From positions 1,472,001-1,536,000 of the forward strand of contig CP169074.1 in the NCBI GenBank assembly GCA_041891055.1: a stretch of DNA of 64,000 bases, in the 5' to 3' direction. Below are positions 36,851 to 38,419 of the stretch, piece by piece (the first letter of the stretch is position 1; every line of letters begins with the position of its first letter). Made by a program: the position numbers and the translations under genes. The notes under the pieces are model-generated. The model had not been told where the DNA came from. It saw nothing but the letters and a program-made list of their open reading frames with translations, and did no database searches. The stretch comes from Halorutilales archaeon Cl-col2-1. GTDB lineage: Archaea > Halobacteriota > Halobacteria > Halobacteriales > Afararchaeaceae.

Positions 36851-37282
36851 ATGAACGACGAGACTGAGACGGGAGACAAAGACGGAGAAGAGGCTCGAAG
36901 CCGGGACGGAGACGCAGACGAGGTCGACGGCAGAGGAGACTGTGAGGCGTGTTTCGAGGCGGGGATAAAGCTGGGTGCGCTCTACCACCAGTTCACGGGC
37001 ACGCCAATCTCGGGCGAGTCGGCGGAGTCACTCGAAACCGCGATAGAGGAAGCAGTCGGGAACCAGAGGTACGTCGAGGAGGTCGGCGTAGAGATAAGCG
37101 GCATAGAGCCCAACCGGTTCGGCTACTCCGAGCTAGAGGGGGAGATGGTCGACGTGAGTCTCGTGGTCGAGAAGGAGGGTGTAGTCGTCGAGGCGAGCAT
37201 GAGTGAGGAGGACGGCTACCCCATGATGAGGGTCGACGAGGTTCTCGAAGAAGACGAAGAGAGCTACGAGACCCAAGACTAA
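36851..37282 (+). CDS. mptD: Archaeal dihydroneopterin aldolase (DUF381)
   Basis: ACFEAGIKLGALYHQFTGTP, GYSEL, YPMM. Confidence 0.85.
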   Translation: MNDETETGDKDGEEARSRDGDADEVDGRGDCEACFEAGIKLGALYHQFTGTPISGESAESLETAIEEAVGNQRYVEEVGVEISGIEPNRFGYSELEGEMVDVSLVVEKEGVVVEASMSEEDGYPMMRVDEVLEEDEESYETQD

Positions 37283-37305
37283 GGCGGGCGGGACAGGTAG
37301 TAGTT

Positions 37306-37665
37306 GTGACTTCCTCCCCGCCCTCCACTCGCACTTAATGTGCGAGTTTAAGGATATTCGGAAATCTTCGATTTCCGAGCTTCCACAAATCTCCGATTTG
37401 TGTTATAGCCAATCGAAGATTGGCGTATCATCCAGATCAAAGATCTGGAGGCGGGGCTTCCAGAGCAGTTTGACCATGATGCCGTCTTCTTTGGATCTCA
37501 CCTCAGAGCGGTCTTCTCTGGAAGTCATCAAGCAGAGCTTGATGGCTCGCAAATCAAAGATTTGCGAAGCCTCTGGGAGGTTCCTGCTTCCGCCACGAAC
37601 TTATAAACCGTGAGGCCCACAGAGGTTCTGTGTTCACAGGCGTAAATTCCGCCGCGCCCCTGCGT
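37306..37665 (-). ncRNA. Putative TnpB omegaRNA/reRNA-like scaffold
   Basis: ACGCCTGTG...GAAGCAGGAA...GAAGCCCCGCC...GGCGGGGAGGAAGTCAC resembles the 3' region of tnpB elements; 5' boundary approximate. Confidence 0.55.
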
Positions 37666-37959
37666 ACTCGATGCTTAGAAATAGTACCGAGTGCGTGATA
37701 TAGCTTACGGCTGTCGCAAGATCTCTGATCTTGCTACCCACGAATTCAAAGAATTTGTGACTGTATCCCCTCCCTACTGTGTATGCAAATATTCGATTTG
37801 CTTGTGCTAGAAAACTCTACGAGTTTTCTGCATCACAGAAATCTCTGATTTCTGAAGACCCGTGAACCTAAGATTCACGAACGCTTCTTGTCTACTAAAG
37901 CAGACTGCGATGTGTTGAAAATCGGAGATTTTCATACGTATGCGAATCTCTGATTCGCA
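37327..37959. repeat. Cluster of about 15 short inverted repeats (17-21 bp), mostly stem-ATC-NNN-GAT-stem
   Basis: e.g. TCGGAAATC-TTC-GATTTCCGA (37358), CACAAATC-TCC-GATTTGTG (37384), GCCAATC-GAA-GATTGGC (37408), TCCAGATC-AAA-GATCTGGA (37431), CAGAAATC-TCT-GATTTCTG (37836), TGCGAATC-TCT-GATTCGCA (37941). Confidence 0.92.
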
Positions 37960-38023
37960 ACACTCCTTGAGGAAGGGGACTTAGCCTGTAAAAAGTTAAG
38001 TCGTGTCGGGTCTAAGCACCGGC

Positions 38024-38419
38024 ATGTCAGAGTCACAGACAAAGCTCGACGACGACGACCTGTTCACAGAGGCGTCCGACGAGATGAGGTCGGACATAAC
38101 CGAGGCGCTCGACGACGCGCGCGAGGCACTTCCCGAGACAGACAGTCTTCTCGAGATAGAGGGGGAGAACAACAACCTGATAGGCGTGCTCAACGGTCTC
38201 AAGTCGGATCTCGACGCCGAGAATGCGGCGGAGTCACTAGCCGAGGCGAAGAAATGGTTCGAGATGGGGAGAAGGGCGGACGCCTTCGACGGCGACTTCG
38301 TCGAGGAGACACAGGGGAGGATAGAAGACCTACACGAGGCGGTCGAGGCGGTCGAGACCGCGGAGGAGTCGGCGACTCAGCTTACCGACTCGGTCGCTAG
38401 TCTCAAACATCTCCTATAG
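38024..38419 (+). CDS. Conserved haloarchaeal protein (DUF5790-like)
   Basis: QTKLDDDDLF.EA..EMR.DI, AKKWF.MG.RADAF. Confidence 0.7.
   Translation: MSESQTKLDDDDLFTEASDEMRSDITEALDDAREALPETDSLLEIEGENNNLIGVLNGLKSDLDAENAAESLAEAKKWFEMGRRADAFDGDFVEETQGRIEDLHEAVEAVETAEESATQLTDSVASLKHLL

Follow-up and report, generated by a model that had tools for sequence, protein, structure and literature searches.

The 64-kb stretch of the Halorutilales archaeon Cl-col2-1 genome analyzed here (the window; positions 1,472,001 to 1,536,000 of contig CP169074.1) contains, at 37306-37995 on the minus strand, a 690-bp mobile element whose end hairpins hold arrays of much smaller hairpins. The element is a palindrome-associated transposable element (PATE) that lacks tnpB and derives from the IS1341-type members of the IS200/IS605 family of insertion sequences (IS) in this genome, and the mini-hairpins are a second layer upon the end hairpins. 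We show that the mini-hairpins are structurally constrained (structure is kept while sequence varies), that modules are lost by recombination through shared cores, and that they are at least sometimes gained together with short direct repeats. The whole is, in our judgment, probably best explained as a PATE whose IS ends carry REP/BIME-like passengers, selfish or neutral, that act at the level of DNA and are not needed by the transposon. Coordinates refer to the window unless a contig (C1 or C2) is given; G000 denotes this genome (2.06 Mb, four contigs) and G001 a congener.

Structural constraint and the genome-wide family

Because the variable number of units makes alignment of left ends unreliable, we evaluated pairing genome-wide with a test anchored on the core, ATC-N3-GAT, only. 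Among 614 core sites, 145 have 5/5 flanking pairs, with 30 different outer stems, compared with 0/238, 2/394, 0/433 and 1/580 fully paired sites for four control cores. Sites of the form TCGNNAATC...GATTNNCGA have complementary dinucleotides at NN in 41 of 43 cases (seven different dinucleotides). The genome holds 514 perfect triloop hairpins; 43 clusters of at least three hairpins contain 225 hairpins in all, 130 with the ATC core, and the ATC tip is found in only 19 of 217 singletons. The loop is constrained as well: 167 of the 182 perfect ATC-core hairpins have the loop R-N-A (R, purine) or its complement (RNA/TNY), for which 25% is expected. C-G-closed purine triloops are a classic, very stable DNA mini-hairpin.

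Linkers between adjacent units alternate, gcc(a) being followed by (g)acgt(t), and the recurrent arrangement is a twin, about 48 nt long, with the form cgt-[TCGnnAATC.nnn.GATTnnCGA]-gcc(a)-[second hairpin]-(g)acg(t), in which the outer cgt and acg can pair. The region under study has about 15 mini-hairpins, of which 11 are perfect triloops with stems of 7-9 bp (the count took in stems from 7 bp upward); units measure 17-21 nt and linkers 2-8 nt. The motif AATCNNNGATT has seven matches in the 64-kb window, all within 37363-37955 (shuffle expectation 0.47, maximum 2; 0/100 shuffles reach seven), and the whole intergenic region folds as RNA with a z score of -13 on either strand (20 shuffles each).

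A preliminary description of this DNA, made from the letters alone, had listed these hairpins, and we find them at, or within 1-2 nt of, the positions it gave; its ATC-NNN-GAT core is indeed common (9/11 perfect triloops in the region), and its view that outer stems vary yet stay complementary agrees with the pairing test. The GNA triloop it emphasized holds in part, for 92 of the 182 loops (GNA or the complement, TNC), and the R-N-A class describes the loops better. Confinement of the hairpins to IS end loops, which it had offered for testing, does not hold: only 17 of the 43 clusters and 62 of the 182 ATC hairpins have a tnpB frame no more than 700 nt away. The other clusters are inside PATEs or free between genes (an extragenic location was seen in the 13 contexts inspected), two of them adjoining tRNA genes, and there are copies inside tnpB.

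The in-tnpB copies are 48-nt twins, in frame, in three diverged genes (C1:129306-130613, C1:218815-220050 and C1:1843541-1844908). The twin adds 15-16 residues in the variable TnpB linker, about 10 residues upstream of the GVDLG motif, and its peptide, SRSGSFDGSQIEDLR, is present in three of nine aligned TnpBs; the other six, including the closest relative of one carrier, have a gap. The Rickettsia palindromic elements (RPEs), which insert in frame into protein genes, offer a similar case, but with a length of 100-150 bp.

Three further observations concern particular arrays. The two that abut tRNA genes (C1:372193-372382 and C1:938923-939062) lie one right after a 3' end and one right before a 5' end, and in G001 the first belongs to a left end that faces the tRNA head-on. 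One six-hairpin array is found in three places, at C1:979447-979586 (just 3' of the only TnpA gene of the genome), C1:533469-533608 and C2:51551-51690, the latter two with no adjoining Y1 match. On the 116-kb contig, C2:22989-23604 holds nine identical hairpins, CAGAAGGCT.GTT.AGCCTTCTG, in about 600 nt; these have the look of a CRISPR-type array, not of the ATC family.

The carrier element and the end hairpins of its relatives

The boundaries of the element are given by a metagenome contig (X4; 183 nt, depth 3.1) that passes from 37305 straight to 37996, leaving out 690 nt, and the two sides have 0 letters in common where they meet. This joint coincides exactly with the boundaries predicted from the element ends, and no target duplication is present there, as in PATEs. 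Read on the minus strand, the window has TTAA (37996-37999, the likely target, and a sequence resembling a TnpB target-adjacent motif), then the left-end domain (37759-37995, beginning with CTTTTTACAGGCTAAGT-CCCCTTCC), the core (37476-37715) and a GC-closed right-end domain (37306-37475) that runs to ...GGGGAGGAAGTCAC at 37306. Both ends are GC-closed hairpins in the same orientation, without terminal inverted repeats, which again is the PATE arrangement. DNA folding recovers both closing stems, 37316-37322/37450-37456 at the right end (z -7.8) and 37766-37775/37970-37979 at the left end (z -7.3), with the mini-hairpins as branches, and 0/200 shuffles reach a stability equal to that of either closed end domain.

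The tnpB elements of the genome have related ends. At 90% identity, 37700-37883 (184 nt) matches the left end of one of them, G000:C1:1825424-1826719, and further left-end matches at C1:1081624 and C1:1017398 support the same relation. TTAA precedes the left-end start here and in five of the six other left ends of this type that were examined (the exception is TTCA at G000:C1:1826719); copies preceded by TTAA are found at G000:C1:1081624 and G000:C2:58001, in G001 (contig C16), and in two further genomes, G005 and G015.

Transposase coding is absent from the 690-bp element as judged by tblastn with 29 TnpBs, whose sole match, 27 aa long with an E value of 0.001, falls on a hairpin twin. The presence of the ends of the genome's tnpB elements together with the lack of a coding remnant in this search is why we classify the element as a PATE. 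The only open reading frame (ORF) of at least 60 aa that starts inside it (91 aa, 37338-37613) has no Pfam match, and blastn of the element against PLSDB plasmids gave no match. There are 0 matches in the window at the Rfam gathering score; on 37200-38100 at E values up to 10, Rfam yields only three chance-level matches (two microRNA models and one snoRNA model).

The left-end apical part carries six hairpins, at 37941-37959, 37916-37934, 37861-37879, 37836-37854, 37809-37829 and 37785-37801, with a remnant of the original loop at 37880-37915. Two of the six are decayed: 37861-37879 has one mismatch and 37785-37801 has a pentaloop, and both are perfect triloops in the congener. A further pair (span 37716-37759) sits just inside the left-end stem, with 37739-37759 containing one G.T on the plus strand and 37716-37734 being perfect; the same pair also follows the left-end stem of the tnpB element at C1:1826719. 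The right-end apical part has four triloop hairpins (37431-37449, 37408-37424, 37384-37402 and 37358-37378), together with a hairpin whose 8-bp stem closes a pentaloop (37327-37347). The core is single-copy in the genome (BLAST of roughly 37572-37702 against the genome finds no second copy) and contains a TATA-like TTATAAA at 37601-37607 and the hairpin twin 37526-37544 plus 37547-37567. The 11 perfect triloops of the region are accordingly the four of the right end, the two of the core twin, 37716-37734, and the left-end units other than the two decayed ones.

We considered the core twin as a remnant of tnpB coding sequence on the basis of a 34-nt BLAST match and rejected this candidate: the match is the in-frame hairpin twin of some tnpB genes, the twin's orientation is opposite to that of a remnant, and tblastn similarity stops at the twin.

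Related elements show what the end hairpins look like with and without modules. The genome has 33 matches to the TnpB zinc-ribbon domain, with hairpin clusters following tnpB stops at a distance of 0-250 nt and preceding tnpB starts by 0-500 nt. When IS ends were annotated by motif around every cluster, four of five motifs were too loose (229-406 hits, or 257 hits), and of that annotation only the tnpB distances (the counts within 700 nt given above) are used; a search for the right-end terminus with up to four substitutions likewise returned mostly chance matches. The main IS family has a common architecture at both ends, a GC-rich stem 5' CCCC.TCCTCAAGGAG ... AGTAGGG.GGGG 3'; its left ends start C(T)nTTACAGGCTAAGT after TTAA and its right ends finish ...GGGGTAGTT(G/C)AC. 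Triloop-free left ends occur at C1:1162422, C2:40761 and C1:841592, and triloop-free right ends at C2:39487 and C1:1350955; the terminal-only PATEs of G015 and G005, which represent two other families, are about 70 nt long and have no triloops either. Other copies of the end hairpin hold from two to about 12 triloops, the highest number being found in the left ends of C1:1826719 and C1:915503. In three metagenomes, contigs have 14-28 nt, forming minimal hairpins of the same type, in place of 37779-37962 (parts of the region without contig cover in runs X2-X4 were left uninterpreted).

The modules occupy particular places within these ends. In right ends they always begin after ...GAGCG, ahead of a conserved tetraloop hairpin, and at this GAGCG|AAC site three right-end lineages with different tetraloop hairpins carry different modules or twins. 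The right-end arrays lie between conserved ...CAACGAGCG and the tetraloop hairpin with its ...GAGCGAAGTAGGGTGGGGTAGTTGAC end, 0-250 nt 3' of the tnpB stop. Left ends have two insertion zones, one on either side of the remnant of the original apical loop, and left-end arrays are upstream of the tnpB TATA-like box. Modules would be tolerated in the apical part of the end hairpin because the basal part presumably carries its functions. In two elements the stretch from the left-end hairpin to tnpB contains short ORFs, some 40-55 codons in length (C1:1826720-1826900 and C1:915260-915500).

The 720-nt gap that holds the hairpins is bounded by two housekeeping genes, a dihydroneopterin aldolase (DHNA) gene (36851-37282, plus strand) and a DUF5790 gene (38003-38419, plus strand), beyond which lie a prolyl-tRNA synthetase gene (upstream) and an oligoendopeptidase gene (downstream). 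The flank just after the DHNA stop (37283-37305) reads GGCGGGCGGGAC... and is able to pair with the element's CCCCGCCC in the RNA fold; it resembles the closing-stem motif and may be the trace of an older end or a chance likeness. In metagenome contigs, the part of the DHNA gene that encodes the acidic C-terminal tail is lengthened at 37249 by 12 or 18 nt (GAAGACGAAGAG...), in frame.

Turnover between congeners and breadth across genomes

The orthologous element of G001 has flanks and core that are 94-96% identical to those of the window element (core 94%), and it differs in its hairpins. It is without the 97-nt block that comprises the four right-end triloop hairpins (37356-37452), and its left end has six additional hairpins in a block bounded by CGTT repeats. 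The loop 37556-37558 is flipped (AAA here versus TTT in G001), the two units that are decayed here are perfect there, and the right-end closing stem has undergone a compensatory change (CCCCA/TGGGG in G001 versus CCCCG/CGGGG here). A metagenome contig (X1; 3765 nt, depth 141) likewise skips 37356-37452 and shares the loop flip; as it may derive from the population of G001, we do not treat it as independent evidence.

All nine arrays compared with G001 (that of the window and eight picked by hand) differ in hairpin content, in flanks that are mostly 93-98% identical. Three arrays (C1:259774, C1:938923 and C1:1634088) are missing in G001, where the empty sites are clean or nearly so; two are much longer in G001 (4 versus 13 units, and 4 versus about 15); and one differs by an ACGGA-flanked twin beside a tRNA end. 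Two loops among the eight further arrays are flipped (gta versus tac). Hybrid hairpins, in which the 5' arm comes from one unit and the 3' arm from a different one, are found at C1:246235 (in G001) and C1:78733 (in G000), indicating deletion through the shared core. A gain with known polarity is seen in the IS copy C1:1766336, which has a twin after CCGTT, ending ACGTT; the second copy of this IS (C2:108950) and related left ends are without it.

These comparisons, together with those of the preceding section, support three further proposals of the preliminary description: that the GC-closed stems are IS200/IS605-type end hairpins (the 90% identity over 184 nt), that such hairpins are expanded by modules (related elements have 0 to about 12 mini-hairpins in the apical part), and that whole units and blocks, rather than a fixed hairpin set, are gained or lost between element copies and between congeners.

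We surveyed the motif AAATCNNNGATTT more broadly. It occurs 104 times in G000, 105 times in G001 and 72 times in G093, a genome of another family; for the remaining 148 genomes of the sample, which was drawn from the order, the count is 0-33, and the reversed control is near 0. G093 has 31 sites with two adjacent units, among them the left-end twin of the window, on at least eight contigs. The hairpin modules are no by-product of IS load, and TnpB load has no predictive value for them: among the matches listed (the best 38 scored candidates at most per genome), genomes with 20-38 TnpB matches have 0-23 core motifs, G129 has 28 TnpB matches and 0 core motifs, and G093 has 11 TnpB matches and 72 core motifs.

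Origin, role and relation to known systems

In the mechanism that we propose, the end hairpins would be the structures that the Y1 transposase TnpA uses on single-stranded DNA (by analogy with the family), and the mini-hairpins are perfect DNA palindromes of 17-21 nt with the conserved tip (A)ATC-RNA-GAT(T), usually twinned. Twins would pile up where they are harmless and where DNA is transiently single-stranded, that is, in end-hairpin apices, intergenic DNA, tRNA flanks and the variable TnpB linker. Arrays shrink when recombination or slippage acts through the shared cores, as the hybrid hairpins show, and grow when twins and blocks with direct repeats of 4-5 nt on either side are inserted or copied, as seen at least once with known polarity; the agent of growth could be either TnpA acting in trans or template switching at stalled forks. 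We infer that the modules act as DNA hairpins, and at the DNA level more likely than at the RNA level, because they are present in left ends, free DNA and genes, because loop orientation is mixed within arrays and flips between orthologues, and because the loop is of the stable-DNA type.

A more specific proposal, which we regard as possible but put forward tentatively, is that the cgt-A-gcca-B-gacgt twin of about 48 nt is mobile in its own right, as an archaeal counterpart of the REPIN without a domesticated RAYT. It would be copied by an ordinary IS200/IS605 TnpA or by a hairpin-induced template switch, would live as a hyperparasite of IS ends in the apical loops of its helper's hairpins, would expand TnpB guide RNA scaffolds at one permissive site, and would occasionally add 16 codons in frame to tnpB.

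Several points weigh against the reading of the arrays as DNA-level passengers spread by such a mechanism. TnpA is no more than a candidate for a protein that binds or cuts the mini-hairpins; a twin, at about 48 nt, is almost too short to accommodate the arrangement of guide and cleavage sites in IS608 and ISDra2. The flanking repeats depend on the site (CGTT, ACGGA) and fit microhomology-driven copying at least as well as a transposase. Most indels may be either gains or losses, and the direct repeats that border blocks are as compatible with deletion as with insertion. The loci set against G001, nine in all, are a non-random sample, the eight beyond the window having been chosen by hand from 26 clusters away from tnpB, and the contig that shows the empty site, only 183 nt long at a depth of 3.1, belongs to a related organism and not to this strain. 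Stems could be kept perfect without selection, by templated correction within quasi-palindromes, so that covariation is no proof of function; conversely, the strong constraint on loop composition need not be expected of a purely neutral passenger. Finally, the right-end arrays would belong to the TnpB guide RNA (omega RNA), and may have an RNA role there.

This last point leads to the rival that survives best, although we consider it unlikely: that the mini-hairpins are functional expansion segments of RNAs, either of the omega RNA/sotRNA scaffold in right ends or of orphan structured RNAs in PATEs, with possible roles in RNA stability in high salt, in end protection or as a multi-site sponge for an RNA-binding protein. 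Arrays 0-250 nt past the tnpB stop, between ...CAACGAGCG and the tetraloop hairpin with ...GAGCGAAGTAGGGTGGGGTAGTTGAC, are where a scaffold is expected, as in the guide RNA stretch of characterized relatives, whose tetraloop hairpin and terminal motif are kept here; in Halobacterium salinarum, tnpB 3' transcripts and a PATE-derived RNA, with a right-end-like hairpin in both, are expressed (PMC4615843, PMC12558985). In the window element, TTATAAA (37601-37607) could promote minus-strand transcription that runs into the right-end domain, and the RNA fold of the region is very stable (z -13). Haloarchaeal omega RNAs, as described, have one right-end hairpin, compared with up to 4-7 extra at one fixed site here (PMC4615843, PMC12558985), and placement at the 3' end of tnpB holds for the arrays beside tnpB; the window element is without tnpB, and left-end and free arrays do not fit. 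Against this rival, modules upstream of the tnpB TATA-like box, in free intergenic DNA and in the tnpB coding region are none of them guide RNA, closely related right ends carry 0, 2 or 4 modules (C2:39487, C1:1161133 and C1:1843541 types), and loop orientation is mixed and flips. The stems, moreover, are Watson-Crick perfect on both strands, and the sole G.T of this region is an A.C mismatch, not a wobble, on the sense (minus) strand.

We give little credence to a second rival, in which the arrays are debris of nested or tandem insertions and deletions of terminal-only PATEs, each contributing one near-terminal palindrome, with no separate module. The carrier is indeed a PATE, terminal-only PATEs of about 70 nt exist in relatives, and Haloquadratum has 52-bp terminal-only forms and mobile elements that often insert into other mobile elements (PMC3119063). 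Units of 17-21 nt, however, have neither the CCCC.../...GGGG stems nor the TTAA-adjacent left-end start nor the ...GTTGAC end; their linkers alternate regularly between gcc(a) and (g)acgt(t), and the same twin stands in frame in genes. Less credible still is that the palindromes are double-stranded DNA sites (AATC-N3-GATT half-sites) at which a dimeric protein, which could be host-encoded or a small protein encoded between the left end and tnpB in some elements, regulates or silences transposons: the conserved core with a variable outer stem, the closely spaced arrays flanking tnpB promoters and the small ORF in two elements would suit it, but an operator needs no complementary outer arms (and 145/614 core sites are paired at five more positions, with 30 stems), the 3-nt center is constrained and asymmetric with a purine run on one strand, as befits a loop and not a spacer, and hairpins decay and are restored as pairs.

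Archaea are not known to have REP-RAYT systems. The REP-like comparison made by the preliminary description is apt. With REP, BIME and REPIN repeats the mini-hairpins share short extragenic palindromes in about 100-200 copies, covarying stems, pairs and mosaic clusters with alternating linkers, fast turnover between close relatives, and an evolutionary tie to the Y1 HUH transposases of the IS200/IS605 family; with 182 perfect ATC-core hairpins in 43 clusters, covarying stems and alternating linkers, copy number and organization are of the REP type. They differ in being perfect triloop palindromes, in lying in many cases inside IS ends and in some cases inside genes, and in having no RAYT. The linked RAYT (TnpA-REP) gene that had been suggested is not found: the single Y1 transposase gene of the genome (G000:C1:979011-979418) is intact and encodes a canonical IS200-type TnpA, which scores 159.5 bits on the IS200 model NF033573 (cut-off 55) and 26.1 bits on the RAYT model NF047646 (cut-off 80). 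It and the adjoining tnpB gene are transcribed divergently, with an overlap of about 25 nt between the 5' ends of the two reading frames, the arrangement of IS605-type elements, and a six-hairpin array lies directly 3' of it. A survey of 172 archaeal genomes likewise found only the IS200-type subclass in archaea (PMC6006769).

A-type units, which are preceded by cgt and followed by gcc(a), not by a canonical GTAG or CGTC tag, are similar in form (cgt-TCGnnAATC-nnn-GATTnnCGA-gcca) to the CGTC-tagged REP super-family, whose members, mostly dimers with no dedicated transposase gene adjoining, combine a stem of 8-9 bp and a short loop with an unpaired tag on the 5' side and a CCA-like tail on the 3' side (PMC3733652). 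Those REPs have loops of 4-5 nt and were reported from five bacterial phyla, whereas the tag here is CGT and then T, and we liken the two by description, not by alignment (PMC3733652).

The haloarchaeal PATEs were described by Dyall-Smith et al. (2011) as palindrome-associated transposable elements derived from IS605-type and IS1341-type transposons (PMC3119063). The 690-bp carrier resembles them in its near-terminal palindromes, in the absence of inverted terminal repeats, target duplication and transposase, in a length that is insufficient for a transposase gene, and in having the ends of tnpB elements. It differs in that PATEs are, in that text, described with one palindrome per end (for example, of 22 bp), compared with 4-12 different nested triloop hairpins here (PMC3119063). 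The SMR-A elements of Haloquadratum walsbyi are, as portrayed in the same paper, also transposase-free, produce no target duplication and prefer the near-terminal palindromes of PATEs and IS605-type transposons; they are, however, about 110 bp long, their inverted terminal repeats are prominent and sequence conservation within each type is high, compared with twins of about 48 nt and many stem variants here, the comparison being one of descriptions (PMC3119063). The literature on PATEs, haloarchaeal IS1341, archaeal REP/RAYT and TnpB guide RNA, in the parts accessible to this search (the supplements of PMC3119063 and PMC4615843 and ISfinder lying outside it), yielded no description of triloop-hairpin arrays. 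The arrays thus appear undescribed in archaea, as the preliminary description had supposed; the system as a whole is not, because its carrier belongs to a haloarchaeal class already known (PMC3119063).

REP/BIME-like behavior in a genome with only a canonical IS200 transposase bears on the origin of such repeats from IS ends. At the fixed right-end site after ...GAGCG, natural scaffolds of the TnpB guide RNA seem able to accept 50-190 nt of additional structure, a hint for guide RNA engineering. The hybrid hairpins, loop flips and 4-5-nt flanking repeats constitute a natural record of palindrome making, correction and loss in an archaeon. Because the arrays change faster than their surroundings (9/9 loci differ), they should also serve as sensitive strain markers and are a likely cause of broken assemblies. 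Several G001 contigs start or stop within hairpin arrays (for example, C39, C42, C44, C2:186-256 and C96), which suggests that such arrays break short-read assemblies.

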